From an uncultured Acidimicrobiia bacterium (GTDB taxonomy: Bacteria; Actinomycetota; Acidimicrobiia; Spongiisociales; Spongiisociaceae): a DNA stretch of 64,000 nucleotides. This document shows, piece by piece, positions 9,408 to 57,295 of this stretch. A program made the position numbers and the translations under genes. Where the stretch lies: NCBI GenBank assembly GCA_958295745.1, contig OY282370.1, forward strand, positions 1,162,311-1,226,310. Direction: 5' to 3'. The notes under the pieces were generated by a model, which was not told the origin of the DNA, ran no database searches, and was given only the letters and a program-made list of their open reading frames with translations. The number at the start of each line of letters is the position of its first letter. The stretch's first letter is position 1.

Positions 9408-10955
9408 TTATGACGGCCCGCGGCCGCCTTCGATCAGGGCCGCGGCGTGCTCGGCCAGCGCAACGGTGGGAAGATGGGTGTTGGCCCTCGGCGCCTGCGA
9501 CATGATGGAGGCGTCCACCACCCGCAGCCCCTCGATCCCCAGAACCCGGCACTGCGGATCCACCACTGTCTCCGCCTGATCGGCAGGCCCCATCCGGCAG
9601 CTGCCGGAGGCGTGCTGAGCGTCGAGGCACGAGCGCATCAGCCAGTCGTCGAGGTCGGCGTCCTCGATCCCCGGATCGACGTCGAGCCGCTCGGGGCCGA
9701 GCCATACCGCCGAGGCGATCCCCCGGATCGGACCGGACCCGGCCAGCTCCATCAGACGCCTCGCCCCGGCCCGCAGGCGCGCCAGGTCATCAGGATGGGA
9801 CAGCATCCGGAAGTCCACCCGGGGTTGGGCGTCCGGATCGGGGCCGGTGATGGCGACCTCGCCCCGGGATGCGCTCTCGAACACGCACATCTCCAGCAGT
9901 CCGGTCTCGAAGCCCTCGCCGCCGTAACCGCTCAGGTTCATGGAAAGGAGCAGCATGTCGTTGGGCACATCCCCCGCCGCCCCCGAGCCGTACCGGACGC
10001 AGCAGTTGGTGTGGCGGTCGTCGGGCGACCGGGCCCTGGCGTGTTCCCGCAGGCCGAGCATCAACCAGACGGCCGGGTGCTCCTGCAGCCCCCGGCCCGC
10101 CGGCAGGTCGGCCGCCACCTCGATGCCGAGGGGCGACAGCAGCTCGGCGGGGCCGACGCCCGAGCGCTGCAGGATGGCGGGGCTGTGGATTGCCCCCGCG
10201 CACAGGATCACCTCCCCTCCCCCGATATCTCTGGCCTCCCCGTCCAACCGGACCGATACTCCTGCGGCCCGGCCGCCGGACAGCAGCACCCGGTCCACCC
10301 TGGCCCCTCCGCGAACGGTGAGGTTGGGGCGGCGGCGGGCCGGCTCGATATAGGCGTCGTTGGTGGTTACCCGGCGGCCGCCCCGGCTGTTGACGGCGTA
10401 GGGCGACACGCCGGTGGACCCCGGAGCGTTGTGGTCGTCGTGCCAGGGGTGGCCCGCCGCCAAGGCCGCGTCCCGAAGCGCCGAGTCGACCGCCCCCCAT
10501 TCCTCCTGGGGTGTTCGGTGCACCGGGATGGGGCCGGAGTCCCCGTGATAAGGGGCTTCCCCGAAGTCGAGGTCGGTCTCCATGCGGAGGACGGCGGGCC
10601 AGATGTCGGCGCTCGACCATCCCGGCGCCACCCAGCGGTCGTAGTCCTCCGGCATGGCCTGGATGGCTATCTGGCCGTTGATGGCGGAGCTGCCCCCCAC
10701 CCCCCGGCCCCTCCAGTAGAGGGACGGTTCCTGCACCTGGGTCCGCCGGACCAGCAAGCCGGGCCAGTGATAGTCCGGGTCGGAGATGATCCGAGAGGGG
10801 TTGGGGCTGCGGATATGCCAAGGCGTGTCGGCGGAGCGATAGTCGAGCCCCGCTTCTAGAAGCAGAACCCGGCGGGCCGGGTCCTCGCTCAGCCGGGCCG
10901 CTACCACGGCGCCCGCCGATCCGGCCCCCACCACGATCGTGTCGTATCCGCCCAT
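9408..10955 (-). CDS. GMC-family FAD oxidoreductase (choline/alcohol dehydrogenase-like)
   Basis: VGAGSAGAV, GRGVGGSSAIN, HASGSCRMG, LRVVDASIM, NTH. Confidence 0.93.
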   Translation of the reverse strand: MGGYDTIVVGAGSAGAVVAARLSEDPARRVLLLEAGLDYRSADTPWHIRSPNPSRIISDPDYHWPGLLVRRTQVQEPSLYWRGRGVGGSSAINGQIAIQAMPEDYDRWVAPGWSSADIWPAVLRMETDLDFGEAPYHGDSGPIPVHRTPQEEWGAVDSALRDAALAAGHPWHDDHNAPGSTGVSPYAVNSRGGRRVTTNDAYIEPARRRPNLTVRGGARVDRVLLSGGRAAGVSVRLDGEARDIGGGEVILCAGAIHSPAILQRSGVGPAELLSPLGIEVAADLPAGRGLQEHPAVWLMLGLREHARARSPDDRHTNCCVRYGSGAAGDVPNDMLLLSMNLSGYGGEGFETGLLEMCVFESASRGEVAITGPDPDAQPRVDFRMLSHPDDLARLRAGARRLMELAGSGPIRGIASAVWLGPERLDVDPGIEDADLDDWLMRSCLDAQHASGSCRMGPADQAETVVDPQCRVLGIEGLRVVDASIMSQAPRANTHLPTVALAEHAAALIEGGRGPS

Positions 10956-11188
10956 GCCCCCAAAACTCTATCGTCATTATCGATGGATATTCCGCCGCAC
11001 TGAGCCGTTCCGACCGAATTACATCGTTGTAGCTGTTGTTTTGTTCTTTAAAATCGGCCTGGCCTCAACAATTTCAATCCTCTCTTAGACGCAACTCCGG
11101 CTTGGACGGGGGGCGGTCGAGGCGGCACAGACGACTCCGCCACTCCAGACGGTTCACACAGACCCTCTGGCAAAGTAGAGGCTTCATC

Positions 11189-11211
11189 AAAATTAGTGAT
11201 ACCATAATTTT
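11189..11211. promoter_or_regulatory. Inverted repeat AAAATTA-N9-TAATTTT overlapping the -10 box (CATAAT, 11203-11208) of the leaderless fic gene
   Basis: Seen directly in the sequence; the ATG lies 7 nt after the hexamer with no SD. Confidence 0.55.
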
Positions 11212-11215
11212 GACT

Positions 11216-12235
11216 ATGAACGAACAAATAGACCCTTCACCGAGAACAGGACGCCCCGCCTACCGCGAGGTCTACCAGAGGCTCGCCGTCCAGATCAGGG
11301 AGCTCCAGGACCACTTGGGCGGCCTCCCCAGCCCGGAGGAGGCGGCCGACATCTGGAACGACATCTGTATCCAGGAGGCCCACCACTCCACGGCCATCGA
11401 GGGCAACACCCTGGTACTGCAGGAGGTGGAGCAGCTGCTCGAAAGGGGTCTGGCGGTGGGCAACCGGGAGCTGCGCGAATACCTGGAGGTCAAGGGGTAC
11501 GCCGATGCGGCGCGCTGGGTGTACGAACAATCGGCCGGCCCTTCGGAATGGTCGAACGCCGACCGCCTCCTGACCCTGGCCGACGTGCGCATGGTCCACC
11601 ACAAGGCGATGAGGCCGGTGTGGGAGGCGGCGCCCCACCCGTTCGCTGCGGAACGCGAGGCGCCGGGCGCCTTCCGCGAGCACGAGATACGACCATTCCA
11701 GGGCGGGATGACCCCCGTCACCTGGCCGCTCATCCCTGCGGAGACGGCGGCTTGGGTGACCGACGCCGACTCGCTCGACCCGGACAGCCCGAACTTCCTC
11801 GAACAGCTGGCCGCCCTGCATTGCCGCTTCGAGCAGATACACCCCTTCATCGATGGCAACGGGCGGGCCGGACGGCTGGTGCTCAACCTGATTCTCGTCC
11901 GGCTCGGCTACCCGCCCGCCGTCATCTACAAGCGGGACCGGGACCGGTACCTGCGGGCGCTCCGGCGGGCCGACGCCGGCGACCCGGGCATGCTGGGCGA
12001 TCTGCTGGCCCGAGCGGTACTGGACAACCTGCACCGCTACGTGATCCCGGCCGTAGCGGGCCCGGCCCGGATGGTCCCGCTCTCCGCCCTCGCCTCCCCG
12101 GACCTGAAGATCCCCGCCCTGCGGGCCGCCGCCGCCCGCGGCCGCCTGAAGGCGACCCGGGGCCCCGACGGGCAGTGGCGCAGCTCCCGGCAATGGGTCG
12201 AGGAGTACCGCACCGGCCGGTGGCGCCGCAGCTGA
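11216..12235 (+). CDS. Fic/DOC family protein with a C-terminal HTH-like tail
   Basis: HPFIDGNGRAGR catalytic motif; internal STAIEGN inhibitory-helix motif; C-terminal PLSALA...RGRLKA...GQWRSS resembles an excisionase/HTH_17 fold. Confidence 0.92.
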   Translation: MNEQIDPSPRTGRPAYREVYQRLAVQIRELQDHLGGLPSPEEAADIWNDICIQEAHHSTAIEGNTLVLQEVEQLLERGLAVGNRELREYLEVKGYADAARWVYEQSAGPSEWSNADRLLTLADVRMVHHKAMRPVWEAAPHPFAAEREAPGAFREHEIRPFQGGMTPVTWPLIPAETAAWVTDADSLDPDSPNFLEQLAALHCRFEQIHPFIDGNGRAGRLVLNLILVRLGYPPAVIYKRDRDRYLRALRRADAGDPGMLGDLLARAVLDNLHRYVIPAVAGPARMVPLSALASPDLKIPALRAAAARGRLKATRGPDGQWRSSRQWVEEYRTGRWRRS

Positions 12236-12357
12236 GCCCCGCCGACTGCTCCGGCGGCGATGATCCGCACCGACGACTAGGCTGCCCCTCCACCGGAGGC
12301 ACGCGGCCTTCAGACCATCAGCCGCCGGTACCGCGGCCCCCGGAGGGGCAGCGGGCG

Positions 12358-12576
12358 GAAAACTAAAGCAAAACCCCCCCACACCCCACAACTTTACTTT
12401 TACGAAGAAGAAAACTAAAGCAAAACCCCCCCACACCCCACAACTTTACTTTTACGAAGAAGAAAACTAAAGCAAAACCCCCCCACACCCCACAACTTTA
12501 CTTTTACGAAGAAGAAAACTAAAGCAAAACCCCCCCACACCCCACAACTTTACTTTTACGAACAGGAAAACTAAAG
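12358..12576. repeat. 52-bp direct tandem repeat, 4 copies plus an 11-bp partial copy; AT-rich and strongly strand-asymmetric
   Basis: Unit gaaaactaaagcaaaacccccccacaccccacaactttacttttacgaagaa starts at 12358, 12410, 12462 and 12514, with the partial at 12566. Confidence 0.97.
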
Positions 12577-12577
12577 T
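12549..12577 (+). promoter_or_regulatory. Putative sigma70/SigA promoter TTTACT-N17-TAAAGT for a leaderless transcript of 12585-14336
   Basis: -35 at 12549-12554, -10 at 12572-12577, ATG 7 nt downstream. Confidence 0.6.
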
Positions 12578-12584
12578 TTCTCTC

Positions 12585-14336
12585 ATGGAGGCACCCCCCT
12601 TCAAGTTTTTCGACCCGCCCTCTCCTGATGCCGAAGCAAGGCGCGTGATCACCGCCTTGGCTGCCGGAGATTACGACCCGGAGCTGCTCGAGTCGGCTTC
12701 CGTCGACCTCAAGGAGGAGGCCGGACGGCGCTCGAACGGCGTAGTCCTTCCCGGTTCACCCCAGAACAACCGCGTCGCCCGCCCACTCGCCGAGGCGGCG
12801 GCCTGCATGGCCAACACCGAAGGCGGCGGTGTTCTGATCGTGGGAGTCGACGGACGAACCGGCGCGATCATCGGCGCCGACACCGACACCGACTGGCTGC
12901 GGACCCGCATCTACCAGCTGACCGACCGGCGGCTCACGGTCAACATTCGCGTCGCCGAGGTCAGAGGCAAACGGTTGCTGGTCATCTCCGTCCCCCAAGC
13001 CGTGGAACCGGTGCCCTTCCACGGCAAATATCGGCGCCGGCAAGGAAAAAACTGTGTGGAGGTCACGAGCACGGAGCTCCTCCAAGGGATATTCGCCGGA
13101 ATGGCAGCCGATCCCTCCTATCAACGCTCGACGGCGACCGTCGGCGCTATCTCCCCGGGAACCGAGACGGCCCTCAGGGGTCGGCTCACCCCGATCGACC
13201 CCGGCAAGGCCGCCCTCCCCCTGAGGGACTTGATCCTGCGCCTCGGGCTTGTCTTCGAGGACACCGAATACCTCAACGAAGCAGGCCGGATTTTGCTCTC
13301 CGCCGACAGCGGGCCCTCCCTCGACTACACCTATCGTGAGGTGCCCGGCGGCCCGTCGAGCGTCCGTATATACGAGTCCGGCCTCTCCCTGCTAGAAGAG
13401 ATCGTCCTCGTCGATGCGACGGCCCTTCGCAACAATCCCTTAACAGAGATAACCAACGGCTTCGAGGTGCGGCGTGTGCACGCCATCCCGCAACGGTCGT
13501 TGCGTGAAGCCATCCTCAACGGGGTTTGCCACCGTGAGTGGACCGACCCGGCGCCGACCGTCGTGGAGCACATCGGCTATGAGCTCCGTGTCACGTCCCC
13601 CGGCGGCCTCATGCGGGGCATCACGACCGACAACATCATCACCCATCCCTCCGTTCCCAGGTATCGCACCCTCATGAACGCCGTTCGCCAACTGGGTCTG
13701 GTCGAGCAGCAAGGGGTGGGGGTGGACATGATGTTCGCCGACCTGATCAGGATAGGGAGCACACCTCCCCTCATCGAGGTCACCGATGATCCGTCCGTTC
13801 GGGTCATCCTCTCCGGGCGGCGGCCCGACGAGGACCGATACCACTTCTTTCTCGATCTGCGGCCGCGAGGGGCCTTCAACGACGTCGACGCCGCCCTCGT
13901 CGTATGGCGCGCCTCCAACCCTGATACGCCTTTTCTGACCGCAGACTCGTGCGCCCCTCTCCTGCAACGAAGCCCAGAGGACGCTGAAACGGCCCTCCGC
14001 CGCCTCGCCGAATACAAACTGGGCGGGGTTCATGGTCTGCTGACTCCCATGACCACGCCGGACGGCGCCCCGCCCGCATGGGTGCTGAGCCAGGCCGCTC
14101 GCGAAGCCCTCCGGATCAGGCCGTCCCGCGAATCGTCCATCCATGCCTTGGCCTGGCTGCGGGAACGCGGCAGGATCTCCTCGACGGAATACTGTGAGAT
14201 AACGGGCTTCTCCCATGCCACCGCCATCGCCCACCTCAAGGCCTTGGCCGAAGCCGGGCACATGGAACCCAGCTCGCCGAGCGGACGGGGGCGCGGTTTC
14301 CACTACCTCCTGCCCGACAACCTCCGGGACCCATGA
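12585..14336 (+). CDS. AlbA_2/Schlafen-like N-terminal domain + HATPase_c_4-like (RecG-C-type) domain + C-terminal winged HTH
   Basis: SVDLKE...ACMANTEGGGVLIVGVD (AlbA_2); LREAILNGVCHREW...VTSPGG...P.YRTLMNAVRQLGLVEQQGVGVDMM (HATPase_c_4-like); GRISSTEYCEITG...RGRGFHY (wHTH). Confidence 0.85.
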   Translation: MEAPPFKFFDPPSPDAEARRVITALAAGDYDPELLESASVDLKEEAGRRSNGVVLPGSPQNNRVARPLAEAAACMANTEGGGVLIVGVDGRTGAIIGADTDTDWLRTRIYQLTDRRLTVNIRVAEVRGKRLLVISVPQAVEPVPFHGKYRRRQGKNCVEVTSTELLQGIFAGMAADPSYQRSTATVGAISPGTETALRGRLTPIDPGKAALPLRDLILRLGLVFEDTEYLNEAGRILLSADSGPSLDYTYREVPGGPSSVRIYESGLSLLEEIVLVDATALRNNPLTEITNGFEVRRVHAIPQRSLREAILNGVCHREWTDPAPTVVEHIGYELRVTSPGGLMRGITTDNIITHPSVPRYRTLMNAVRQLGLVEQQGVGVDMMFADLIRIGSTPPLIEVTDDPSVRVILSGRRPDEDRYHFFLDLRPRGAFNDVDAALVVWRASNPDTPFLTADSCAPLLQRSPEDAETALRRLAEYKLGGVHGLLTPMTTPDGAPPAWVLSQAAREALRIRPSRESSIHALAWLRERGRISSTEYCEITGFSHATAIAHLKALAEAGHMEPSSPSGRGRGFHYLLPDNLRDP

Positions 14337-14384
14337 TGCGGGAGCATCCAGGCCCGCGGCGGCGTCGCTCCTGGCCGCAGGCCG

Positions 14385-16115
14385 TTATTCCGGCGGCCGG
14401 GCCCGGGCCGCATGAGCAAGGATGGAGTCGAGCACCAAGACGACGTCCTCGTGGACGTCCGAGGGTTCCAGGAAACGGACCAGCAGGTGGTAGTCCGCCT
14501 TCCGCATCAGCAGGGGCAACCCCACTTCGTCGAAGAAGGCGCCTAAGACCGGGCGGAGCAGCCGGTCGCTGATGTTGGTATCCAACCAATAGGGGTGTTC
14601 CAGGTCGCGCCGGGCTGCTCGCGGCGTGTGATCTTCGATGGTCTTGTCCATGGCCGCAAGCCAACGGTCCGCCTCCGGCTGCTCGAACAACGGGCCGGCC
14701 GCCGCCTTCCTCCCCTCCTGCCGGGCGTACTCACGCAGCGTCTTGGTGGGAAGCAGGTAGTTCTCGAGTCGGCGGCGCGGCCACATGTGCTCGACCAAGG
14801 CCCCGCCGGGTTCCGGCTCGGTTTCGAGACGGCCGAACAGCGCGTAGCCGACCAGGCCGGGATCAGCCTCCCTCAAGCCGTCGAAATGCCGGCGGGCCTC
14901 ACCGGGCCTGCCGCCCACATATTTGACGAACGGGCGCTCCAACACCTCACCCGCACCGTGGCCGAGCACCTCTGCGAAGGACCTCAACAAAGCCAGTTCC
15001 GCAGCACCCTCCAGGTACAGGACGAATCCGGTCAGTGCGGCCTGGTAGTAGTCCTCGAAACCGATGTACCGAAGGGCCTTCAACACCTCTGACGTGCGGT
15101 CTATCCGATGGGGAGACCCCACGAAGGCCACCACCGAACCCCGCCCGGCAGCCTCCCTGAGGATCACTTCGGAGTGGGAAGCGATGATCACCTGGGTTCC
15201 GTCGGCGGCGGCCGCCCGGCTCAACAGATCGTAAGTCTGGCGTTGCCGCAGAATCTCGAGGTGGGCCTCCGGTTCGTCGAGCAGCAGTACGCCGCCGGGG
15301 TGGAGGTGGATGAAAGCCAGCAACAGCAGCGTCTGCTGCATACCTCGACCGGCCGCCGTGATATCCAGGCGGGAACCTTCTCGATCGACATAGGTGAGCT
15401 CGATCTCGCCTCGCTCGGGGATCCGTCTGGGGCGGTCCGGCTTCGCGCCGAAGAGATCCGCCAGCTGGCTCGACAGCGTATCCCAGCGGCCTTCTCCGTC
15501 CGGCCTCTCGGCCGCGCGCAAACAGAGGTTGCGCAGCACCTCGGATGCGCGGCCCTCCCCCAGCCGAACGTTCACGGCGCCGGGTTCGATCCTCGTCTCG
15601 TTGGCGGCCAGACCGGATACGGGGCCGGTCAGCACTATTCGGGGGCGAAGCTCCTGCGGAAGCACCGGCATGCGCTCTTTTCCATCGGGATCCATCCGCA
15701 GCGGACGGCAGTAGAAGCTCTCCTCGTTGATATAGTCGAATTCCAGCCCGCACCTCCAAGACTCGTGTCCGGTCACCCCCTCCACGATCACGTCTATGCG
15801 GATGTTCTCGGTGCGTTGCCCGGCTTCATCGCGATAGGTCTTGCGAACCTGGAGGCCCCTCCACATCTGGCGTGCCGAAAGGCCGGGCACACCGGCCAGA
15901 TCCCTCCTGTTGATCACCACCCCGGGGCGATGCAGAGGCGCCTGGTCCCCCCGCTTCTCCGTCCAGCGCCGCAGCCCCAGGTCCCAGAGGGTGAGAGCCT
16001 GCAAAGCAGATGTCTTACCGGAGTCGTTAGGGCCGACCAACACCACCGGGTTGCCGAGCTCGATCTCTACCTCGGCCAGCCTCTTGAAGTTGCGGATGGT
16101 GAGCTTGGTGAACAT
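14385..16115 (-). CDS. OLD-family-like ABC/SMC-type ATPase with a degenerate TOPRIM-like C-terminus
   Basis: Walker A GPNDSGKTS, signature AAGRGMQQ, Walker B LLLDEPEAHL, H-loop IASHS; C-terminal LYLEGAAE...FGRLE. Confidence 0.8.
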   Translation of the reverse strand: MFTKLTIRNFKRLAEVEIELGNPVVLVGPNDSGKTSALQALTLWDLGLRRWTEKRGDQAPLHRPGVVINRRDLAGVPGLSARQMWRGLQVRKTYRDEAGQRTENIRIDVIVEGVTGHESWRCGLEFDYINEESFYCRPLRMDPDGKERMPVLPQELRPRIVLTGPVSGLAANETRIEPGAVNVRLGEGRASEVLRNLCLRAAERPDGEGRWDTLSSQLADLFGAKPDRPRRIPERGEIELTYVDREGSRLDITAAGRGMQQTLLLLAFIHLHPGGVLLLDEPEAHLEILRQRQTYDLLSRAAAADGTQVIIASHSEVILREAAGRGSVVAFVGSPHRIDRTSEVLKALRYIGFEDYYQAALTGFVLYLEGAAELALLRSFAEVLGHGAGEVLERPFVKYVGGRPGEARRHFDGLREADPGLVGYALFGRLETEPEPGGALVEHMWPRRRLENYLLPTKTLREYARQEGRKAAAGPLFEQPEADRWLAAMDKTIEDHTPRAARRDLEHPYWLDTNISDRLLRPVLGAFFDEVGLPLLMRKADYHLLVRFLEPSDVHEDVVLVLDSILAHAARARPPE

Positions 16116-16148
16116 TACCGCGACCCTACGCCTCAGGGGGCGGGTCCC

Positions 16149-18365
16149 TCAAGAGTCGTCCGACGGTAAATCTTCGAGCAGGGCGATCCGGCTGATGCCG
16201 CCGGTGGCGCCGGTGTAGAAATCGACCCGCACGCCGACCACCGGAGTCCTGGGCGGGTTTTCCTTTCCTGTATTGGCCAGGTCTTTCTCGAAGCCGATTA
16301 TCGTGACCGGCCCGTCCAGACCGGTCAGGTGGTCGTTGCCGTCATAGGCGATCAGCAGCACCTTATCCACTGAATCATCCGCATCCGCCGAGTCATCCGC
16401 CCCTTCGATCACCAACCGGTTGTTGATGATGTCCTTGTGCAGCAACTGTCCGGTAACCGGTATGTCGCCGTCGCCGGGCGCCTCCACCCAATAGTGGACC
16501 AACTCTTCCGCGGTCTTCCCGCCTCCGGTCGCCGTAATGGTTTCGACGCCGCTGTCCCCCGAGTCGCGGGCGTAGACCAGGTGAGCCTCCCCGCGGCGGT
16601 TGGTGGTGCGCGTCAACCGGGCGTCGCCTTCGTCATCGGCGCCGATCCCGTCCTGGTCGTCGGAAGTAAACGATATCTTCGTGCTGCGTATCGGGTTGCC
16701 GTACTGATCGGTGAGGACGGCGGTGATCCTGTTCACCGCGCCTTGACCGCTGTCCGTTGCTTCATGGTATGAAACCGCCTGGAACAGCTTCAATGTCGAA
16801 GGCGCACCGCCGCCGGTGTCCCGCCACACGACCGCCGGCTCGGTGTGGGATTCGGAAACACCCACCTGCCCCAAGGTGGTCATGTCCTCCAGATCCACCC
16901 CGGACGGTAGCGACGTAACCCTCAATATCACCTCGGCGGTGTCTCCCCAGTTGTCGCTGCCGGGGTTCGGGTCCGTATGCCGGAACGACAGCACTATCCG
17001 CCCCGCCGCGTCCGTCTCGTACGACTTCACCTCGTAATTGGTGAGATCTCTAGAAGACGCGGGGCTCGGCAGGACCGTATCCACGGTGGAGATCGTCACC
17101 TGTACGTCCTCCTCCGCCGCCGGCTCCCCGCGCGTGTCCACCAGCTGCAAAGTGAAGGTGACCCGGTCGCCGAACCGTGCAAACCTGGCGCCGGAGGCCA
17201 TGTCATCGGTCACCCGCAACCTCGCCGCCTCTCTCGAGACGGCGGCCCGCACGAATCCGGCCGATCCGTCGTCGGCGTCGTATTCGTCGCCTATGTCGCC
17301 TGACCAGGCCCATATCGTCCTGCTCTCCTCGGGGGAATAGGTTATCTGCACATCGCCGGACGAATCGGTCGTCACGTCGTTGCGGTCGATCACGCAAACC
17401 TCGGATCCTCCGTTTACCTGCTCCACCACGTCCCTCGCGCAGGCCCCGCCGGAGCGGAACGCAGACCTCGCCGTCCGGGCGGAGAAAACATCCACCGGCG
17501 CTCTCGGCACCGGAAGGTGCTCCCGGTCGCGCACCGACACCGACAGCTTCACCGAACCGCCCGCGACAACCGACGCTTTGGCGGCCTGGATGGTCACCCC
17601 CGCCGGGCGGGCCGCCGTATGCGCCAGCGCCCGGGTGATGAACGCCGCCATCTCCGCTCTGGTCACCATGCCCTCCGGGGAAAATCGGCTATCCGACCTC
17701 CCCTTGGTCACCCCCATCTCGAACATGCGGTAGATGGCCCTATATACGTCCCGCCTCACCCCATCCAAATCCGTAAACACCTGGTCGTCATCGTCGTCCA
17801 AATACACATCGGAAACATCGACGCCGCCGGGTCCCACCTGCGATTCCTCCAGGAACCCTTCCAAGATCAGCGCCATCTCCGCCCGTGACACCGGCCTATC
17901 GGGCTCGAACAACCCGCCGCCGGAGCCGAACATCACCCTCAGCTCCACCATCTGTCGGATGGCGTCCTGCGCCTCCTCGAACAGGCCGCCGATATCATCG
18001 AAACTCGCATCCGCCCTCCGCGGCAGCACGATCCCCGCCGGGCCGGCCGCCCGGGTCAGGAACACGGCCATCTCCCAGCGCCGTACCGAAGAATCCGGGT
18101 CATAAGCCGTAGCCGTCCGGCCCTTCGTGATCCCGTAATGGAACAGACAGTTCACCGCGTCCTCGGCGAACGACCTCCGTATATCCCTAAAACCCGCCGA
18201 CTCGATCGCCGGGCCGACGCACGCCGAATATACGGGCAACCACCCCGGTTCCCTGTCCGCCCCCCCGGCCGGCGCCGCCCCGACCGCCGACAACGAGCAC
18301 ACCAAACCCAGCGCAACCAGCCACCCCCGCCTTCTAACCCGTACCATCGACCACTCCCGATTCAC
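16149..18365 (-). CDS. Secreted S-layer homology (SLH) protein with Ig-like (Big-type) beta domains
   Basis: Signal peptide; three SLH-like repeats (GITKGR...RWEMAVFL; GLFEPDRPVSRAEMALIL; FSPEGMVTRAEMAAFI); Ig-like LTDQYGNPI motif. Start may be 18347. Confidence 0.85.
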   Translation of the reverse strand: MNREWSMVRVRRRGWLVALGLVCSLSAVGAAPAGGADREPGWLPVYSACVGPAIESAGFRDIRRSFAEDAVNCLFHYGITKGRTATAYDPDSSVRRWEMAVFLTRAAGPAGIVLPRRADASFDDIGGLFEEAQDAIRQMVELRVMFGSGGGLFEPDRPVSRAEMALILEGFLEESQVGPGGVDVSDVYLDDDDDQVFTDLDGVRRDVYRAIYRMFEMGVTKGRSDSRFSPEGMVTRAEMAAFITRALAHTAARPAGVTIQAAKASVVAGGSVKLSVSVRDREHLPVPRAPVDVFSARTARSAFRSGGACARDVVEQVNGGSEVCVIDRNDVTTDSSGDVQITYSPEESRTIWAWSGDIGDEYDADDGSAGFVRAAVSREAARLRVTDDMASGARFARFGDRVTFTLQLVDTRGEPAAEEDVQVTISTVDTVLPSPASSRDLTNYEVKSYETDAAGRIVLSFRHTDPNPGSDNWGDTAEVILRVTSLPSGVDLEDMTTLGQVGVSESHTEPAVVWRDTGGGAPSTLKLFQAVSYHEATDSGQGAVNRITAVLTDQYGNPIRSTKISFTSDDQDGIGADDEGDARLTRTTNRRGEAHLVYARDSGDSGVETITATGGGKTAEELVHYWVEAPGDGDIPVTGQLLHKDIINNRLVIEGADDSADADDSVDKVLLIAYDGNDHLTGLDGPVTIIGFEKDLANTGKENPPRTPVVGVRVDFYTGATGGISRIALLEDLPSDDS

Positions 18366-18571
18366 TCAACAAGATATGGGGAGGTCGCTGTGTAATCACC
18401 GGCGGCCTGCCGGTCGATGACGGAATGCCTAGGTCGGCGAAACGACGTAACCAAGAACAATCGTCATTACTCAGCACCCTCCTCGAAGGATGCCCTCCTC
18501 AACCCCAATCCTACCCCTCCTACCTGAGCATGGGCAATGGTCATTCCGCCCGCCGGTACACTGGCGCCGGT

Positions 18572-20233
18572 ATGGCGTCTGAAATCGTGTTTCTCGACCA
18601 AGTTGATCTGACCGAGGCATCCCGCCGGGAGCTGGAAGGCGCTGGGCAGGTGAGGGTGGCCCCGGTCGACCGGCAGGAGGACCTGGCCGAGGCGATCCGG
18701 GGCGCCGACGCCCTGCTGTACCAGATGTCGCCCCTCCTGCTCTCCGGGACCGTCCTGAAAGGATGCCACGGCCTCAAGGTCATCGGCCGGATCGGGATAG
18801 GCATGGACCAGGTCGATCTGAGCGCCGCCGCAGAGTGCGGCATCACGGTGGTCAACGCCGCCCGCGCCCAGGCCGCGGCGGTGGCCGACCACGCCATGAC
18901 CCTGATCCTGTGCCTCGCCCGCAACGTCATCGACGCCCACACCTCCGTGCTGACGGAGGGCCAGACCTCCCCTAGGCGCTTCATGGGCCGCGAGCTGAGC
19001 GGCAAAAACCTCGGTATAATCGGTTTCGGCGCCGCCGGACGCGCCGTAGCCCTCCGCGCCTTCGCCTTCGGAATGTCGGTCCATGCCCACGACCCGTACC
19101 TGTCGCCGCAGGAGATCGAGCAGGCCGGGGTGATCCCCAAGGACCTGGCCGGTCTGCTGGCCGACAGCGATTTCATCTCCATCCACGCCCCCCTCACCGA
19201 CGAGACCCGGCATCTCATAGGCGCCGCCGAGCTCCGAACCATGCGCACCGGGGCTTACCTGATAAACACCGCCAGGGGGCCGATCATCGACGAGGAGGCT
19301 CTGGCGGCGGCCCTGCGGGAAGGCATGATCGCCGGGGCCGGGCTCGACGTCTTCGAAGACGAACCCCTTCCCTCCGACAGCCCGCTCATCGGCCTCGACC
19401 AGGTGATCCTCACTCCGCACATCGCAGGATGGACCATCGAGGCGCAGGCCCGCACCCAGGAGACAGTGGCCCGCGACGTGGCGCGCGTCCTGCGCGGCGA
19501 GGCGCCCCACAGTCCGGTCCCGCTCCCCGAGAAGGCATCCGATTTCGGACGGCGCAGCCCCCCGGGAGCGAGGCCGGAGCCCCCGCCGCTGCAGCCGTAT
19601 GCAGAATGGGCGGAGAGCGGGCTTCCGCATCCGAGCGACACCCACCCGTTCGGGACGGTCCCCGGCCTGCGGAGCATCATCGAAGTCGAAGGCCCCCTCA
19701 CCACCGCCCGCGCCTACAAACTGTACGTGCGGGGCGCCGGGTCCACCCGGGTAACCAAGCTCGTACAGGAAGGTCTCGACATGGCCGTCAACCGTCTGCT
19801 GGAGCAAGACGAGATCCAGATCGACGATCTCGACAACCCCACGGAGGACAGCATCCAACGGGTGGTCCGCAGGCGCGGCGACCCCGCCGTCGTGGTCCGC
19901 CGGATAGGGAACCGCGGCCTCTACGAGGCGCCCCTCAACGAGATCGCCCATCTGATGAAGCAGCGGATGGACCGGCACCCCAACGCCACCCACGAGAGCC
20001 TGATGCGATACGTTCTCAACACATACGGCTGGAGACGACTCACCGACAAGGCCCGCACCTACCTGACCTCCGCCATCGACCTCATGTACCAGATTCCCGA
20101 CAACACCCCCCGAGAAGACAACCACCGAGAAGACAACCCCCGGCCGGGCGGCGGGAACACACCACCCCCTCCCCAAAACAGGGACGACCTCCCCGAATAC
20201 CACCCCTGGCTAGGCGATCAGTACCTGTTATGA
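18572..20233 (+). CDS. D-2-hydroxyacid (SerA-like) dehydrogenase fused to a C-terminal DUF3320-like winged-helix domain
   Basis: GIIGFGAAG, INTARG, LDVFEDEP, TPHIAG, then IIEVEGPL...YVRGAG...RGL...NEIA...YGWRRLT. Start assigned from TACACT 9 nt upstream. Confidence 0.8.
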   Translation: MASEIVFLDQVDLTEASRRELEGAGQVRVAPVDRQEDLAEAIRGADALLYQMSPLLLSGTVLKGCHGLKVIGRIGIGMDQVDLSAAAECGITVVNAARAQAAAVADHAMTLILCLARNVIDAHTSVLTEGQTSPRRFMGRELSGKNLGIIGFGAAGRAVALRAFAFGMSVHAHDPYLSPQEIEQAGVIPKDLAGLLADSDFISIHAPLTDETRHLIGAAELRTMRTGAYLINTARGPIIDEEALAAALREGMIAGAGLDVFEDEPLPSDSPLIGLDQVILTPHIAGWTIEAQARTQETVARDVARVLRGEAPHSPVPLPEKASDFGRRSPPGARPEPPPLQPYAEWAESGLPHPSDTHPFGTVPGLRSIIEVEGPLTTARAYKLYVRGAGSTRVTKLVQEGLDMAVNRLLEQDEIQIDDLDNPTEDSIQRVVRRRGDPAVVVRRIGNRGLYEAPLNEIAHLMKQRMDRHPNATHESLMRYVLNTYGWRRLTDKARTYLTSAIDLMYQIPDNTPREDNHREDNPRPGGGNTPPPPQNRDDLPEYHPWLGDQYLL

Positions 20234-34073: not shown

Positions 34074-35225
34074 ATGACGATGGGGGACCGGGGGCCTAAC
34101 GAAGAAATGATCGGCCGGCCTGGTTCCCGCCATGAGCTGGGAACCCCGTCGCTGGTGGTGGACCTCGATGTCATGGACGCCAACATCGCCTCCCTGGCCG
34201 AGCACGCCGCCGCCCACGGCTACGAGGTGCGTCCGGTGGCCAAGATCCACAAGTCGATCGAGATCACCCGCCGCCAAGTGGAGGCGGGCGGACGCGGGCC
34301 CTGCTGCGCCACCCTGGCCGAGGCGGAGGTGATGGTCGACGCCGGGTTCAGCGACGTGATGCTGTTCACCTCGGTTGTAACCGCCCCCAAGCTGGATCGG
34401 CTGGCCGAGCTGAACGCCCGGGCCGACGGCTTCGTCATCTGCGCCGACCACGCCGCCAACGTCGTCCAGCTGGGCGAGGCCGCCCGCCGGTCGGGGCGCC
34501 CGATGAAGGTGCTGGTCGATCTGGAGACCGGCAGCCACCGCACCGGCATCGCCGACGATGACGAAGCGGTCGCCCTGGCCCGCCTGATCGCGGACACCGA
34601 AGGCCTCGAATACGCCGGGGTCCAGGGATACACGGGCCACCATATGAACATCACCGGCTTCGAGGCCCGCCGCCTGCGGGGGCTGGAGGTGCTGGAACCG
34701 GTGGTCCGGGTGGTGGAACGGCTGCGGGCGGAGGGCCTCGAACCGGAGATCGTCTCCGGCGGGGGGACCGGCAGCCACGACATCGACCACGAGCTGGGGG
34801 TCTTGACCGAGATCCAGGCCGGCACCTACCTGTTCATGGACGGCCACTACGACGGCGTGGAACAGCGGCGCGGCGAGCCCCGGCCCTTCGAACCCGCCCT
34901 GTTCGTGCGCACCACCGTCATCAGCAACGCCCAGCCGGGCTTCGTCATAACCGACGGCGGGCTCAAGGAAGTGGACAACGTGTTCGGGATCGACCATCCG
35001 GTGATCCTGCGGGGCGCGCCGCCCGGGGCGGTCTACTCGATCGCCGGGGACGACATGGGCAAGATCACCTTCGCCGACCCGGGCGACCGGCTCCAGATCG
35101 GAGACGCGGTGGAGATACAGCCCCCCCACTGCTTCCAGACCATGATCCTCTACCGGTATTTCCACGTGGTGAGCGGGGACGAGCTGGTGGACATCTGGCC
35201 GGTAGACGCCTTCGACAGCTGGTAG
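34074..35225 (+). CDS. Fold-type III PLP enzyme, DSD1/D-threonine aldolase family
   Basis: AAGGAGG RBS; TPSLVVD, RPVAKIHK (PLP Lys), SGGGTG, EIQAGTYLFMD, PHC metal ligands. Confidence 0.88.
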   Translation: MTMGDRGPNEEMIGRPGSRHELGTPSLVVDLDVMDANIASLAEHAAAHGYEVRPVAKIHKSIEITRRQVEAGGRGPCCATLAEAEVMVDAGFSDVMLFTSVVTAPKLDRLAELNARADGFVICADHAANVVQLGEAARRSGRPMKVLVDLETGSHRTGIADDDEAVALARLIADTEGLEYAGVQGYTGHHMNITGFEARRLRGLEVLEPVVRVVERLRAEGLEPEIVSGGGTGSHDIDHELGVLTEIQAGTYLFMDGHYDGVEQRRGEPRPFEPALFVRTTVISNAQPGFVITDGGLKEVDNVFGIDHPVILRGAPPGAVYSIAGDDMGKITFADPGDRLQIGDAVEIQPPHCFQTMILYRYFHVVSGDELVDIWPVDAFDSW

Positions 35226-35299
35226 AGAAGGCGCAACCGCGCCGCCATCACCTTCGCAATCGCCTCAGCGACTGACCGCCCCTTTGGGGCGATTTCGGC

Positions 35300-36304
35300 T
35301 CATCCGACAGAAACAGTGCAGTCGATCCCGAACCCCGCATCCGAAGATTTGATCTCCACAATGGATTTCCCGGAGAAATTATCATTGGCGATGATATCGC
35401 CGAATTCTCCGGAGAACCCAGACACTCGCTCCCAATAGCAGGAACTATCCGCACTCAGCCTATAAGTGCCCGGTTCGATATCGACTCCCACCTCATATAC
35501 CCCCATCCAAATTTCAGACGATTCCGGTGTCAGCCTTTCGCCGAGTATCGATTCAAGGCTCTCTACTACCAAAGGACTGCAGTCGATCCCGAACCCCGCA
35601 TCCGAAGATTTGATCTCCACGATGAAGTATCCAGCAGAATTATCATTGGCGATGATATCGTCGAATTCTCCGGAGAACCCAGATACTCGCTCCCAATAGC
35701 AACTCTGTTCTATCAGGAATCGGTAAACTCCCGGCTCAATATCCACACCCACTGCATATGCTCCCGCATCCAGCACTCCCAGGAGCCACGATGGAACCGT
35801 GGTTGTCGTAGTCGGCGCCCTCGTGGTTGTCGTAGTCGGCGCCCTCGTGGTTGTCGTAGTCGCCTCCGTCGTCGTGGCAATCGCCTCCGTCGTCGTGGCA
35901 ATCGCCTCCGTCGTCGTGGTCATGGTCGGCAGATACGCCGTGCCCAACTCATCTTCACAGGGTGCGCCGTCAACCCCACCGAACTCCATATCCCGGAACC
36001 CCCACCTGAAATCCGGACCGGCGTCAATCACCATCTGCCGCAACTCATCCACCGAGAACCCCTGGTCAAGCCACTTCCCACAACGCATCCCTTCGAACCG
36101 GTCGGGGTCCGGCGCACCAATAATCGGCGGAGCTGCCGTAGTGGTCGTCCTTTCGGCCGGGGCCGTCTCCACCGTCTCCCGAACCGTCGTCGGCTCTGGG
36201 TCGTCCGGCCGATAAGCCGTAGTAGAGGTCTCCACACCCCCACAGGCACCCCCGACCGCAACGGCCAAAACAGCCGCAACCAATACTCTCCGAATCATAA
36301 TCAT
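35300..36304 (-). CDS. Lipoprotein with a Thr-rich stalk and two copies of a Cys-containing beta domain
   Basis: Lipobox AVGGAC; duplicated Y(A/E)VGVDIEPG.YR...CYWERVSGFSGEF.DIIANDN domain. Confidence 0.8.
   Translation of the reverse strand: MIMIRRVLVAAVLAVAVGGACGGVETSTTAYRPDDPEPTTVRETVETAPAERTTTTAAPPIIGAPDPDRFEGMRCGKWLDQGFSVDELRQMVIDAGPDFRWGFRDMEFGGVDGAPCEDELGTAYLPTMTTTTEAIATTTEAIATTTEATTTTTRAPTTTTTRAPTTTTTVPSWLLGVLDAGAYAVGVDIEPGVYRFLIEQSCYWERVSGFSGEFDDIIANDNSAGYFIVEIKSSDAGFGIDCSPLVVESLESILGERLTPESSEIWMGVYEVGVDIEPGTYRLSADSSCYWERVSGFSGEFGDIIANDNFSGKSIVEIKSSDAGFGIDCTVSVG
35798..35918. repeat. In-frame coding tandem repeats (24-bp x about 2.7, then 21-bp x about 2.7)
   Basis: Units cgtggttgtcgtagtcggcgccct and gcctccgtcgtcgtggcaatc. 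Confidence 0.9.
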
Positions 36305-36591
36305 GATCCTTTCTGTTCCGCCGACCTGCCCTTCGGCGGGACCGACCACTCTCTTCTCCCCCTTTACATCACCAGGGACTCTTACCCGTCGTCCTCTCCC
36401 CAAACACCCAATCTGTAAGTCGTTGTACCAATTGATGCCGTTTCAAATCCTCCATATATGGGAGCATCCCAACCATATTCCGCCTCGGCCGCTGTGTCTT
36501 CGGCCAGCTCGTCAACAAGGGCCTCGGCCAGCTTAACCTCCGCCGCCTGATCCTTCCGTCGCAGATCCCTCACCAGCCACCAAATAGACCG

Positions 36592-37569
36592 TCAGTAGGG
36601 GCGGGATCCCTTGGGTCGGTCGTCCAGATAGCGTTGGGTGATCTTGCGGGCCTGCTCCACCGGGTGCACCCCCACCTGCTGGGCGAAGGCGTCGATCAGG
36701 CTATCCACCACCGGCCCCGGTCTGCCGTCTCCGATGGGGCGTCCGTCGATGCTGGTCACCGGCATCACGAAAAAGGGAGTAGAAGCCAAAAAGGCCTCGT
36801 CGGCGGTCATGGCGTCATAAGGCTCGATGTCGGCCTCCACGAACTCCAAGCCCAACCCGGGGGCCAGATCCCTCACGTCCTCCCTGGTAACCCCCCGCAA
36901 GATGTTCCGGCCCTGCGGCGAGATCACAGCCCCGTCCTTGACGATCAAGAAATTGGCCCCTCCCCCTTCCGTCAGGTAACCGTCGTCGTCCAAGAACACC
37001 GCCTCCGCCCTGGGATCCACCCGCTTGGCCTCCCTCATCCCCTTCCCGTAATGGATCCGGTTGCGGTTCTTCATCTTCGGATCCAGATAACGGGCAGGAA
37101 TGTTCCTGGTAGGAGGTATCACCACCGGGATGCCGTTCTCCAACCCGTCGAGCGCGTCCACCAGCGAAGCCCCCAGCGGAATGAAGACGATGAACACCGT
37201 CCGCTCATACGAATCGTACGGACCCGGATCGAAAGGCTTGGCGATGCCCCGGGATGCGTCGTTGTTCCACATCAGGTCGTCGTAAGGCTCGATGGCGGCC
37301 CGATTGCGCTCGATCAGCTCGAGGGTCGCCTCCTCCATCTCCTCGATCGACATTCCGCAGTCGATGTCGAGGGCCTTCATCGAGGCGTACAGGCGCACCA
37401 TGTGATCCCGGAGGCGGTGGGGCCGGTGCCCGTAGGTGCGGACCGTCTCGAACACGAACTCCCCGATCCGCACCCCCACGTCGAAGGGCGCCAACCGCAG
37501 CTCCGACTCCGGGATGAAATGGCCGTTGAAAAAAGCAGTGCGCTCGGTGGTCTCCGTCGTCTCGTTCAT
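36592..37569 (-). CDS. Class IV PLP aminotransferase (BCAT/D-amino-acid transaminase family)
   Basis: GEFVFETVRTY, KMKNRNR, LTEGGGAN, ILRGVTR, EAFLAST. Confidence 0.9.
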   Translation of the reverse strand: MNETTETTERTAFFNGHFIPESELRLAPFDVGVRIGEFVFETVRTYGHRPHRLRDHMVRLYASMKALDIDCGMSIEEMEEATLELIERNRAAIEPYDDLMWNNDASRGIAKPFDPGPYDSYERTVFIVFIPLGASLVDALDGLENGIPVVIPPTRNIPARYLDPKMKNRNRIHYGKGMREAKRVDPRAEAVFLDDDGYLTEGGGANFLIVKDGAVISPQGRNILRGVTREDVRDLAPGLGLEFVEADIEPYDAMTADEAFLASTPFFVMPVTSIDGRPIGDGRPGPVVDSLIDAFAQQVGVHPVEQARKITQRYLDDRPKGSRPY

Positions 37570-44172: not shown

Positions 44173-45654
44173 ATGACCACCTGCACGACATGGCGCCCCA
44201 TCGAGCCGCCCGACCCGGCAACGGCGGAAAGGCTCAGAGGCGATTTGGCCGCTGTCGATGCCCTGCACCGGTCGTGGAAGGAGTTCGCCGCCTCCCTGGA
44301 CGAGGCCGACCGCCATACCCTCCGCCGCCGCACCCTTCGCAAGCACGCCATAGAAACCGGCATCATCGAGCACCTATACGACATCGACCCGGGGGTTACC
44401 GAAATGCTGGTGGCCGAAGGGCTGACCAGGGAAGCCGTCGCCCGAGCGGGCGGGGAGCTGTCTCCGGGAGTCCTGCCCATGCTCGAAGCCCAGATGGAAG
44501 GGCTGGAGATGGTCACCGAATACGTGCGGGAAGGGTTTCCCTTGACCACCTCCTTCATAAAGGAGATCCACGCCCTGATCGCCCGGGCCCAGCCCTACTA
44601 CGAAGCCACCGATTCCTTGAGGCGGCCCATCAGGGCAAAACTGAACCACGGCAGCTTCAAGACCCTCCCCAACAACGTGAAACTATCCGACGGGTCTCTC
44701 TTGGAATTCGCCCCGCCCGAGCAGGTGGACGGGGAGATAGAACGCTTGGTGGATTGGTACAACCGGATGAGTGATGTCCATCCGGTGATCTCCGCCGCAT
44801 GGCTGCACCACCGGTTCGTGCAGATCCATCCCTTCCAGGACGGCAACGGGAGGGTGGCCAGGGCTCTGACCCTCCTCTCGTTCGGAAGGGCGAAATATCC
44901 GCCGCTGGTGGTAGACCGGGATAGCCGAGATCGGTACTTGCAGGCCTTGAACCAAGCCAACGGCGGCGATTTGACCCCCCTAGGCCGGCTCTTCGTCAAA
45001 TTGGCCATGCGGTCTATACGCCGTGAGCTGGAAGTTCCGGTCCCCGGCCCCCTGCCCCAGACCGCCCGGGAAGTCGCCCGATACCACGCGCGAAAGCTGA
45101 GGTTCCAGGACCAGGAAAGAACAGAGCAGAGAGAACGCGCCGTCCATATACGGGCCCGGCAGATCCACGGACAAATCGGCGACTGGTTCCAAAATGTCGG
45201 CACCGACCTGAAGAGTGTTTATGCCGAACAAGGCCGAACGGTCCAGCAATGGACCGATCAGATCGACCCCGATCACGAACGGGCCAAGTGGTGGCGCCGT
45301 CAGATCATCCGGTCGGCCAAGAAAGCCGAGCACTACGCCGACCTTTCCTCCGACACCTGGTGGACAGCCTTGAGTTTGACTATCAACGGACTTCAATTGC
45401 GGTTCGTTGCCTCCATCCATCATGTGGGAAGCCCCCGCACCGGTGTCATGGCCGTAACCACCTGCGGGGTAATCCGACATCTCACGCAAGAGGACGGGCC
45501 TCCCGAGACGACCGACGTGGATACTTCCTGGGACGCCTTCACTTTCTCCCACGACGAGGAGGTAGAGGATCGGGCCGGCGAACTGAACGATTGGCTGGAC
45601 CATTCGCTGGCGGCGGCCTTTCAAGAACTGAGCCGCCTTACGCTAAGAGCGTGA
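44173..45654 (+). CDS. Fic family protein with a long C-terminal domain
   Basis: AIETGIIE, QIHPFQDGNGRVAR. Confidence 0.92.
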   Translation: MTTCTTWRPIEPPDPATAERLRGDLAAVDALHRSWKEFAASLDEADRHTLRRRTLRKHAIETGIIEHLYDIDPGVTEMLVAEGLTREAVARAGGELSPGVLPMLEAQMEGLEMVTEYVREGFPLTTSFIKEIHALIARAQPYYEATDSLRRPIRAKLNHGSFKTLPNNVKLSDGSLLEFAPPEQVDGEIERLVDWYNRMSDVHPVISAAWLHHRFVQIHPFQDGNGRVARALTLLSFGRAKYPPLVVDRDSRDRYLQALNQANGGDLTPLGRLFVKLAMRSIRRELEVPVPGPLPQTAREVARYHARKLRFQDQERTEQRERAVHIRARQIHGQIGDWFQNVGTDLKSVYAEQGRTVQQWTDQIDPDHERAKWWRRQIIRSAKKAEHYADLSSDTWWTALSLTINGLQLRFVASIHHVGSPRTGVMAVTTCGVIRHLTQEDGPPETTDVDTSWDAFTFSHDEEVEDRAGELNDWLDHSLAAAFQELSRLTLRA

Positions 45655-45790
45655 GCGGATAGGTGTTAGTTGGTAGGGCTCCAGCGGTTTCGCCAGTTGA
45701 TGAGTTTGATGGTGATGATCAGGGTGATGGCTAGCCGGTGTTGGGGGCGGCGGTCGGTGTTGGGGGCGTAGTTGCCCGTAGTTCGACAGC
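45647..45790 (-). mobile_element. IS5-family remnant (transposase 3' end plus probable terminal repeat)
   Basis: Frameshifted translation LSNYGQLR.NTDRRPQHRLAITLIITIKLINWRNRWSPTN*, recalled as an actinobacterial IS5 C-terminus; probable end gagcgtgagcggatagg preceded by TAA. Confidence 0.6.
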
Positions 45791-46020
45791 CGGTGGACGA
45801 CCGATTCACTGAGTGGGCGGAAGCGGTGGGAGTACCGGTCGGTTCGGTTACCGATGAGGACACCAAGCAGGATCTCATCTGCGAGCTGGACGCCTGTGTG
45901 GCTCATCTCTACGACCTCGACGAGGACGACTTGGCTGTCATATACGAAACATTCCACGAAAGGACCGACTACTCTGAGCACCACGCGGCGGTGCTCGAAC
46001 ACTTTGGGAGAACTGAATGA
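45790..46020 (+). pseudogene. C-terminal fragment of an Eco57I-like/type IIG DNA methylase
   Basis: DDRFTEWAEAVGV...LICELDACVAHLYDL...IYETFH matches the recalled extreme C-terminus of large methylases partnered with PLD-SNF2 helicases; no N-terminus is present. Confidence 0.65.
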
Positions 46021-46319: not shown

Positions 46320-46490
46320 GCCAGCTGTCTGAACTTTGTGTGTTATACCTCCTCGTATAGTGTCCGGTAAACTAGGCTGATGGAAAGGACAGCTTGAAGG
46401 ATGGGCGGAACTGCGGGCTTTCTGAGCGAGCGGGACCCCGGTATTTGGTACCCGCCGAAGGATTTTGCCCATTCACTGAGGCCTGCCCAG

Positions 46491-48456: not shown

Positions 48457-48459
48457 GGA

Positions 48460-57179: not shown

Positions 57180-57223
57180 CCTCGAAGGATACCGGTCGGC
57201 CGCATCCGACCCGGGACCTTTTG

Positions 57224-57280
57224 CCTGGATCCACCGGTGGGGGGTTGGGGGTGGAAAGGTCGGGAGGTGCCCCTCTGACC
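57224..57280 (+). mobile_element. Isolated left-end remnant of an IS1380-family element
   Basis: cctggatccaccggtgg...gggggtggaaa...ggtgcc..ctgacc aligns with 49283-49345. Confidence 0.7.
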
Positions 57281-57295
57281 GCTCAAACAATTAAT

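Follow-up and report, generated by a model that had tools for sequence, protein, structure and literature searches.

A PGDH-like dehydrogenase fused to a DUF3320-type helicase C-terminal module in sponge-associated Acidimicrobiia

Introduction

Helicase-nucleases of the MTES_1575 type combine DUF4011, AAA_11, AAA_12, an MTES_1575 restriction endonuclease (REase) domain and DUF3320, and two C-terminal winged helix-turn-helix (wHTH) domains that overlap DUF3320 have been described in MTES_1575 (Anantharaman et al. 2013; PMC3710099). Here we analyze a gene in which a region of this kind follows a metabolic-type enzyme. The gene lies at 18572-20233 (+) of a 64,000-nucleotide stretch from an uncultured Acidimicrobiia bacterium (contig OY282370.1 of assembly GCA_958295745.1, positions 1,162,311 to 1,226,310; hereafter the window, from whose first nucleotide all coordinates are counted). 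Its single open reading frame (ORF) has four parts, namely a dehydrogenase resembling D-3-phosphoglycerate dehydrogenase (PGDH), a disordered Pro-rich linker, a module of about 170 amino acids (aa) and a disordered tail. The module is homologous from end to end with the last 170 aa of the MTES_1575-type helicase-nucleases, shares with them the invariant E-G-P, VRxxGxR and P..E motifs, and resembles them in its extreme C-terminal position. The window protein differs from these enzymes in its length (553 aa versus 1,500-2,150 aa), in lacking the helicase, the nuclease and the 1,400 or more residues that stand upstream, and in having a metabolic-type dehydrogenase as its N-terminus.

The dehydrogenase half resembles the short (type III-like) PGDHs, for example 1WWK, in its complete two-lobed fold, its GxGxxG motif, the NAD-specifying Asp and the Arg/Glu/His residues. 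The fusion differs from them in the predicted tandem winged-helix module added at the C-terminus, and some members of the fusion family are catalytically dead. Two known regulators use an NAD(H)-binding domain as an input in the way that is proposed here. CtBP, the eukaryotic NADH-sensing co-repressor, belongs to the same dehydrogenase family (CtBP1, E = 1e-48) but has no DNA-binding domain of its own. Bacterial Rex combines a winged helix with a Rossmann NADH sensor and feeds NAD(H) into gene regulation, but its winged helix is N-terminal and a catalytic dehydrogenase fold is missing. Neither protein is related in sequence to the window module. An enzyme or enzyme-fold domain is covalently joined to a small DNA-binding-type domain in PutA (ribbon-helix-helix and proline dehydrogenase), BirA (wHTH and biotin ligase), NadR and MocR/GabR (wHTH and aminotransferase fold), and in these proteins, as in the fusion family, evolution can remove either catalysis or the second function and leave the other. 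In all of them the DNA-binding domain is N-terminal and comes from other families, whereas the module described here is C-terminal, of a two-unit DUF3320 type, and comes from a defence-type helicase.

Both domain families, and proteins that join an enzyme to a DNA-binding domain, are thus already known kinds. In a literature search, in which DUF3320 turned up in one paper only, we found no description of the dehydrogenase-module architecture or of the module fused to small enzymes. The explanation that we put forward, as a tentative one, is that the fusion is a trigger enzyme in which an NAD(H)-binding dehydrogenase is coupled to an output that would bind nucleic acid.

Results

A complete dehydrogenase of the short PGDH type

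The forward-strand ORF spans 18425..20233, and from the ATG at 18572 it encodes 553 aa up to the TGA stop codon at 20231-20233. The frame runs from the dehydrogenase into the module without a stop codon, and all folded parts of the gene (Table 1) have a third-position GC of 0.82-0.88, which is the level of the neighbouring genes. The original prediction, which was made from the sequence alone, had described a complete dehydrogenase with a Rossmann motif and catalytic Arg/Glu/His that reads through a Pro-rich linker into a C-terminal part bearing the motifs IIEVEGPL, YVRGAG, GNRGL, NEIA and YGWRRLT; all of these are found.

Table 1. Features of the fusion gene and of its 5' flank, in window coordinates
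Feature	Position	Strand	Basis or context
-10-like hexamer TACACT (TAnAnT)	18557..18562	+	9 nt before ATG; kept across 18 loci
PGDH-like D-isomer 2-hydroxyacid dehydrogenase domain, residues 1-316	18572..19519	+	Pfam, PDB 1WWK match, AlphaFold
Pro/Gly/Arg-rich flexible linker, residues 317-339	19520..19588	+	pLDDT, low identity
DUF3320-type tandem winged-helix module (predicted fold), residues 340-512	19589..20107	+	profile search, PDC-S37 match, AlphaFold
wH1, first winged helix (three helices and beta-hairpin wing; predicted), residues ~363-434	19658..19873	+	DSSP, Foldseek
Second, wing-less three-helix unit (predicted), residues 455-505	19934..20086	+	DSSP on models
Acidic, Pro-rich low-complexity tail, residues 513-553, and stop codon	20108..20233	+	pLDDT 33-45
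Fic protein	11036-12235		5' variable island
AlbA_2/HATPase_c_4 protein	12585-14336		5' variable island
AAA_15/AAA_21 ATPase	14385-16115	-	5' variable island
SLH + Big_1 surface protein, 738 aa	16149-18365	-	5' variable island

Pfam 2-Hacid_dh_C (PF02826) matches residues 109-285 of the dehydrogenase half (E = 9e-62; 208 bits against a cut-off of 25.1), and 2-Hacid_dh (PF00389) matches residues 7-316 (E = 5e-23; 81.7 bits against a cut-off of 24.6). The window copy lacks none of the NAD-binding and catalytic residues (GFGAAG at 151-156, D174, R235, E264 and H283), and they align to the motifs of 1WWK, including NTSRG, EEP and TPH. This 307-aa PGDH from P. horikoshii is the closest solved structure (E = 1.5e-66), and further structure matches are to the PGDHs of M. 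tuberculosis and human, McyI, glyoxylate reductases and CtBP1/2 (E ~1e-48). The best NCBIfam match is to the PGDH model TIGR01327 (E = 9e-85), which is aligned only over profile positions 22-316 of 525 (the catalytic two-thirds) and scores 285 bits, under the 454-bit equivalog cut-off. Because the score stays below this cut-off, 3-phosphoglycerate is unproven as the substrate, and a SerA identity is not established for the dehydrogenase half; what stands of the earlier label "SerA-like" is a complete PGDH-like dehydrogenase. No ACT or ASB domain, the C-terminal regulatory domains of PGDH types I and II, was matched in the fusion protein in the Pfam scan, and the nearest free relatives are enzymes of 310-340 aa that also have neither. 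By comparison with these relatives, the module is most likely an addition to a short enzyme and not a swap. The earlier proposal that it replaces an ACT domain is therefore not supported, as 1WWK and the dehydrogenase-only form nested in the fusion family (see below) are also short and have no regulatory domain.

The module is shared with the C-termini of helicase-nucleases

A profile (A1) of the window module and six close homologues was searched exhaustively against 1.84 billion representative proteins. The search gave 922 matches at E <=1e-3, counted as representative clusters at 50% identity, and 543 matches at E <=1e-10. The best matches outside the fusion family (E = 1e-49 to 1e-38, profile positions 1-166 of 169) lie at the very C-terminal end of proteins 1,500-2,150 aa long, and the non-fusion proteins scanned with Pfam, as full-length proteins or fragments, carry an AAA_11/AAA_12 superfamily 1 (SF1) helicase, an MTES_1575 Vsr-like nuclease and, in several of them, DUF3320. 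A word-indexed protein search with the module reached only the close fusion family, and the helicases required the exhaustive profile search. The module is also matched by the PADLOC model PDC-S37 (E = 9e-8, profile positions 1400-1533 of 1550) and by the NCBIfam model ProA (NF058533, "anti-phage protein ProA"; E = 1e-3, positions 1784-1903 of 1903); a literature search found no paper on PDC-S37 or ProA proteins. The matches to helicase profiles are confined to the last 130-140 positions, and the SF1 helicase core and the MTES_1575 nuclease are absent from the window protein. Pfam DUF3320 (PF11784) is itself below threshold in the window protein (13.3 bits against 25, E = 0.086) and scores 20-47 bits in its relatives. 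The likeness to DUF3320-like C-termini of helicase-nucleases, which the original prediction had proposed, is thus confirmed by the profile search and the PDC-S37 match. Among 50 aligned modules, which include fusion and non-fusion proteins (the latter mostly helicase-borne), six residues are invariant: E373, P375, R443, R448, P454 and E457 in the numbering of the window protein.

From its N-terminal end, the module consists of a conserved segment in extended form (PYxxW..GLPHP), then wH1, then the loop VVVRRIGNRGLYEAPLNE and finally a three-helix unit. An AlphaFold2 model built on the 50-sequence alignment has a predicted local distance difference test (pLDDT) score of 95.5 and a predicted template modelling score (pTM) of 0.90, and its topology is an ordered extended N-terminal segment, three helices followed by two beta-strands, the conserved loop, and then three helices. 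In Foldseek searches the first unit gives local matches to the winged helices of PadR, LmrR, BVU3908 and ORC1 (probability 0.8-0.95, root mean square deviation 2.5-3.7 A, E >0.1), and the whole module gives weak matches to tandem winged-helix proteins. A sequence search of the module against PDB returned only chance-level subtilisin matches (E >0.1). The second three-helix unit corresponds to the second wHTH of MTES_1575 (PMC3710099). The winged-helix assignment, which the original prediction had also made, is supported by the modelled topology and by the MTES_1575 literature, though no structural match is statistically significant. The module is basic in most fusion members, with an isoelectric point (pI) of 8.9-9.8.

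The linker (HSPVPLPEKASDFGRRSPPGARPEPPP) is Pro-rich, varies in length and has a mean identity of 26% among homologues, versus 68% for each of the two folded domains. In an AlphaFold2 model of the full-length protein on a 90-sequence alignment, the dehydrogenase domain (pI 5.0) and the module both have a pLDDT >90, residues 322-336 and 513-553 have a pLDDT <50, and pTM is 0.60. Because of the low linker pLDDT and this pTM, the dehydrogenase and the module look like independent beads on a flexible string, with no docking predicted between them, unlike a docked ACT regulatory domain. The earlier estimate of about 170 aa for the whole C-terminal part fits the module and leaves out the 41-aa disordered tail that follows it. 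This tail, which ends in PREDNHREDNPRPGGGNTPPPPQNRDDLPEYHPWLGDQYLL, is lineage-specific and missing from most homologues; an identical tail is found in one related protein (P0156; here and below, P and L numbers are our labels for proteins and loci), and a shorter one, ending in PAWWEI, at L006.

The fusion is intact in many genomes

A protein search found about 57 protein clusters (90% identity) that cover at least 84% of the full-length query, among them a 98%-identical protein of 553 aa on a 2.2-Mb contig. Where public names are given to the fusion homologues, they are just "hydroxyacid dehydrogenase" or "D-3-phosphoglycerate dehydrogenase". In a scan of GTDB species representatives, 16 loci were found, all in metagenome-assembled genomes of Acidimicrobiia; several of these carry the family name Candidatus Spongiisociaceae (Actinomycetota) or the name Spongiisocius. 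The whole protein aligns in an unbroken single frame at 13 of the 16 loci, with 57-67% identity; at L014 the first 56 residues are cut off by the contig end, one of the remaining loci aligns at 41%, and one carries the module only, on a GNAT domain. In all, one intact frame encodes the fusion in 14 species-level genomes and about 57 clusters, which come without exception from sponge-associated Acidimicrobiia. Contigs of four other public runs contain the window sequence, and the junction is crossed by X1 (2,284 bp), X3 (1,102 bp) and X4 (874 bp) with substitutions only and no indel; one contig of 2x depth has an extra base within the dehydrogenase part. The original prediction had allowed for a fusion unique to this assembly, or one broken by a frameshift or stop; the clusters, the species genomes and the indel-free junction contigs show a recurrent, intact gene.

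At two loci the dehydrogenase part is split by a single 1-bp insertion (L001, ~9970-9990; L002, ~10010-10020), and the contig names of both suggest long-read assembly. These frameshifts are probably assembly errors, with recent pseudogenes as the alternative. An error is likely in L001, because there the extra base is a G that lengthens a G-run, on a 14x contig named like a long-read assembly; the copy at L009, which is 96.6% identical, is intact.

Both halves are under purifying selection and each can be lost

We estimated dN/dS (the ratio of nonsynonymous to synonymous substitution rates) by the Nei-Gojobori method, taking medians over 15 intact genes. The median is 0.23 for the dehydrogenase and 0.21 for the module, and for the linker the ratio is 0.5-0.8 in the closest pairs (0.28 in one pair). 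By this measure the module is kept under purifying selection. These ratios bear on the possibility that the fusion is a relic with no function, or that it arose as an artefact of assembly or annotation, with the frame running by chance into a decayed helicase remnant. Such a relic would suit the derivation of the module from helicase C-termini, the loss of the module in one lineage and the two frameshifted copies. However, the single intact frame recurs in the 14 species genomes and about 57 clusters, the junction contigs have no indel, the L001 frameshift is an extra base in a G-run with an intact copy at L009, and the module is on par with the enzyme in dN/dS and mean identity and retains its invariant residues. 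We thus regard a relic or artefact as highly improbable.

The catalytic triad R235/E264/H283 is kept in 54 of the 62 family members. The whole triad is lost in P0008, P0212 and the P0206-P0208 group, and single changes are seen in P0195 (H to R), P0161 (R to Q) and P0190 (a conservative E to D). GxGxxG and D174 are kept in all 62 members, and the module is kept in all but two, which consist of the dehydrogenase only. Because the triad-dead members retain both the NAD motifs and the module, something besides catalysis is apparently selected, and the loss of the triad with the NAD-binding motifs retained leans towards a sensor or regulator role in some lineages. The two dehydrogenase-only members (P0213 and P0214) are enzymes of 319 aa with an intact triad and no module. 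P0214 is encoded at 4001-4960 of L022, a locus syntenic with L002, and the absence of the module is real there, because only 37 bp separate it from the end of the next gene downstream. Both proteins nest within the fusion clade when a neighbour-joining tree is built from the dehydrogenase domain, which suggests a secondary loss of the module; since they keep R/E/H, the enzyme appears to be a function in its own right. Each half is thus dispensable in some lineage, as expected of two separable functions.

The retention of the triad in most members, the window copy included, would also be expected of a plain metabolic enzyme whose module serves as an oligomerisation, allosteric, small-ligand (ACT/ASB-like) or partner-anchoring domain, with no involvement of nucleic acid. 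The metabolic neighbours of the gene, which include tripartite ATP-independent periplasmic (TRAP) and ATP-binding cassette (ABC) transporters, agree with this explanation, as does the presence of the module on several other metabolic-type proteins, some of these modules being acidic (both described below). However, the module stays under selection in members that are catalytically dead, the flexible linker and the low pTM speak against a docked regulatory domain, and the parent of the module is a DNA helicase-nuclease and its predicted fold a winged helix. A purely metabolic role is therefore rather doubtful in our judgment, and we continue to favour the trigger enzyme.

As to the origin of the module, a neighbour-joining tree places all dehydrogenase-fusion modules in one clade nested among the helicase-borne modules. 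This suggests a single capture, and it is likely that the module was captured from a helicase gene. The earlier view of the C-terminal part as a captured fragment of a decayed defence gene agrees with the tree as far as a historical capture is concerned; a non-functional, decaying fragment does not agree with a dN/dS of about 0.2.

The module is found on other enzymes and on conflict-type domains

It is also evident that the module is carried by proteins other than the helicases and the dehydrogenases. It stands C-terminal to TIR_2 (P0154), a Ser/Thr kinase (P0049), GNAT (P0015, P0020 and L021, 5200-6648), AAA_26 (P0032, P0059, P0061 and P0068), Aminotran_5 (P0016), SnoaL (P0026) and a glyoxalase-fold protein (P0132). 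P0057 (937 aa) carries it internally, at residues 591-743, behind an AAA_16 domain. The contigs of P0016 and P0059 contain these genes in full. Judged by these domain contexts, the DUF3320-type module is promiscuous, and its repeated appearance on a TIR domain, on GNATs, on a kinase, on an aminotransferase and on further enzymes suggests that it has a general role in targeting or sensing. Aminotran_5, AAA_26, SnoaL and glyoxalase are the partners that would suit a plain metabolic enzyme, whereas TIR_2, GNAT, protein kinase and AAA_16 are typical domains of conflict systems.

Start codon, promoter and genomic neighbourhood

The start at 18572 is backed by the N-termini of the homologues and by a shared TAnAnT element upstream. 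This hexamer lies 9-13 nucleotides (nt) before the conserved start in all 18 loci compared, and its conserved position fixes the start codon at 18572. A longer ORF of 602 aa, from an ATG at 18425, was discarded on the same two grounds. No Shine-Dalgarno sequence follows the hexamer. A hexamer close to the ATG without a Shine-Dalgarno sequence is typical for leaderless actinobacterial genes, and these two features together suggest a promoter of the leaderless type. The element emerged from the comparison of loci; a sigma-70 consensus scan upstream of the fusion gene gave no match. CCGG motifs flank the hexamer in the window, and in the 200 nt upstream at L001-L022 it is often bracketed by a weak CCGG...CCGG inverted repeat, which could be an operator or could arise by chance in a GC-rich genome, and it is not counted as evidence.

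The 5' flank of the gene (11036-18365) is a variable island of the defence or toxin-antitoxin type (Table 1), the cargo of which differs at the same place in related genomes; the original prediction was correct in placing the gene near an island. The AAA_15/AAA_21 ATPase is also found close upstream in L002, L006, L008 and L013. In L007, L010, L011, L012 and L017 a small, conserved divergent gene on the - strand, which starts with MAMTLRLTEDEHRALQERAAAEGISMQEAARRAV, lies ~100-200 nt upstream of the fusion gene, and by reading of its translation it looks like a ribbon-helix-helix (RHH) antitoxin. On the 3' side stand metabolic genes with partial synteny, namely thiamine pyrophosphate (TPP)-enzyme/E1/E2 clusters or ABC transporters, and at L005 the stop codon of the fusion gene overlaps with an Ldh_2 gene. 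Elsewhere in the window, much lower GC (0.53-0.62 versus ~0.67 in 1-kb windows) is seen at 35001-37000, 45001-49000 and 57001-58000, which may be foreign or RNA-gene regions.

A similar arrangement has been reported in P. aeruginosa, where the defence hotspot cDHS1 has the large DUF4011 gene as one of its flanking core genes (PMC10250203). The hotspot-flanking position of that gene parallels that of the fusion gene here. Presumably it belongs to the same helicase family as the parents of the module, although only its domain name is given in the paper.

These observations bear on a further explanation, in which conflict systems of prokaryotes use the module as a general, portable domain for sensing or targeting, one that recognizes foreign DNA or a phage factor and is mounted on helicase-nucleases and on TIR, GNAT, kinase and STAND-like domains. 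In the fusion it would be wired to a dehydrogenase that serves as effector or sensor through NAD(H), or else the fusion protein would regulate the island, so that the gene, a core gene at the border of a defence hotspot, would encode an immune or island-regulating protein dependent on metabolic state. The parent proteins do match a candidate and a named defence model (PDC-S37 and ProA), the module is shared with the conflict-type domains listed above, genes for Fic, AlbA_2, AAA_15/21 ATPase and RHH antitoxin are present in the 5' island in many genomes, and the P. aeruginosa parallel, with its assumed shared family, adds to these. However, the fusion gene shows the pattern of a core gene passed on vertically, its promoter being conserved and its 3' synteny metabolic, 2-hydroxyacid dehydrogenases have no known role as defence effectors, and dN/dS is low and even, unlike that of fast-evolving sensors, with no gene strictly co-inherited. 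It is thus unlikely that the module acts as a portable immune domain across proteins, and equally unlikely that the fusion itself is a component of a conflict system.

Discussion

The trigger-enzyme explanation is supported by four observations, namely the separable losses of the two halves, the NAD motifs retained in dead enzymes, the descent of the module from a DNA enzyme, and the basic charge of the module in most members. Several results weigh against it. The module of the window protein is itself neutral, with no net charge and a pI of 7.5. Foldseek searches of the module against PDB and BFVD gave no match at E <1e-3, and the module has no solved structure. The search for an operator upstream of the gene gave no convincing one, just the weak CCGG repeat around the -10 element, and in the compared flanks, where synteny is partial, there is no conserved partner gene and none is strictly co-inherited with the fusion. 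Moreover, the fusions to TIR, GNAT and kinase fit a sensor or adaptor of conflict systems equally as well as a DNA-binding domain, and both trees are neighbour-joining trees with no support values.

If the fusion is a trigger enzyme, its history and action could be pictured as follows. The module would have been captured once, in an ancestor of the sponge-associated Acidimicrobiia, from the 3' end of a gene for an SF1 helicase with an MTES_1575 nuclease. Enzymes of this dehydrogenase family are obligate dimers, and a dimer of the fusion protein, if it forms likewise, would present two winged-helix modules, and these may bind nucleic acid, with DNA as the most probable target. When NAD(H) or substrate is bound, the resulting domain closure in the dehydrogenase would alter how the modules bind nucleic acid. 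A redox or metabolite signal would in this way be coupled to gene control or DNA targeting, as in PutA, BirA, NadR, Rex and CtBP.

The module of the DUF4011/DUF3320 helicase-nucleases is widespread, as the 922 representative clusters indicate, and a small, soluble and conserved fusion on a well-understood dehydrogenase offers a tractable handle on what the module binds. The second domain of the fusion is invisible in present databases, and public annotation names the dehydrogenase only. If the trigger-enzyme explanation is true, the fusion would represent a lineage-specific tie between redox or carbon metabolism and regulation in sponge symbionts, located beside a defence hotspot.

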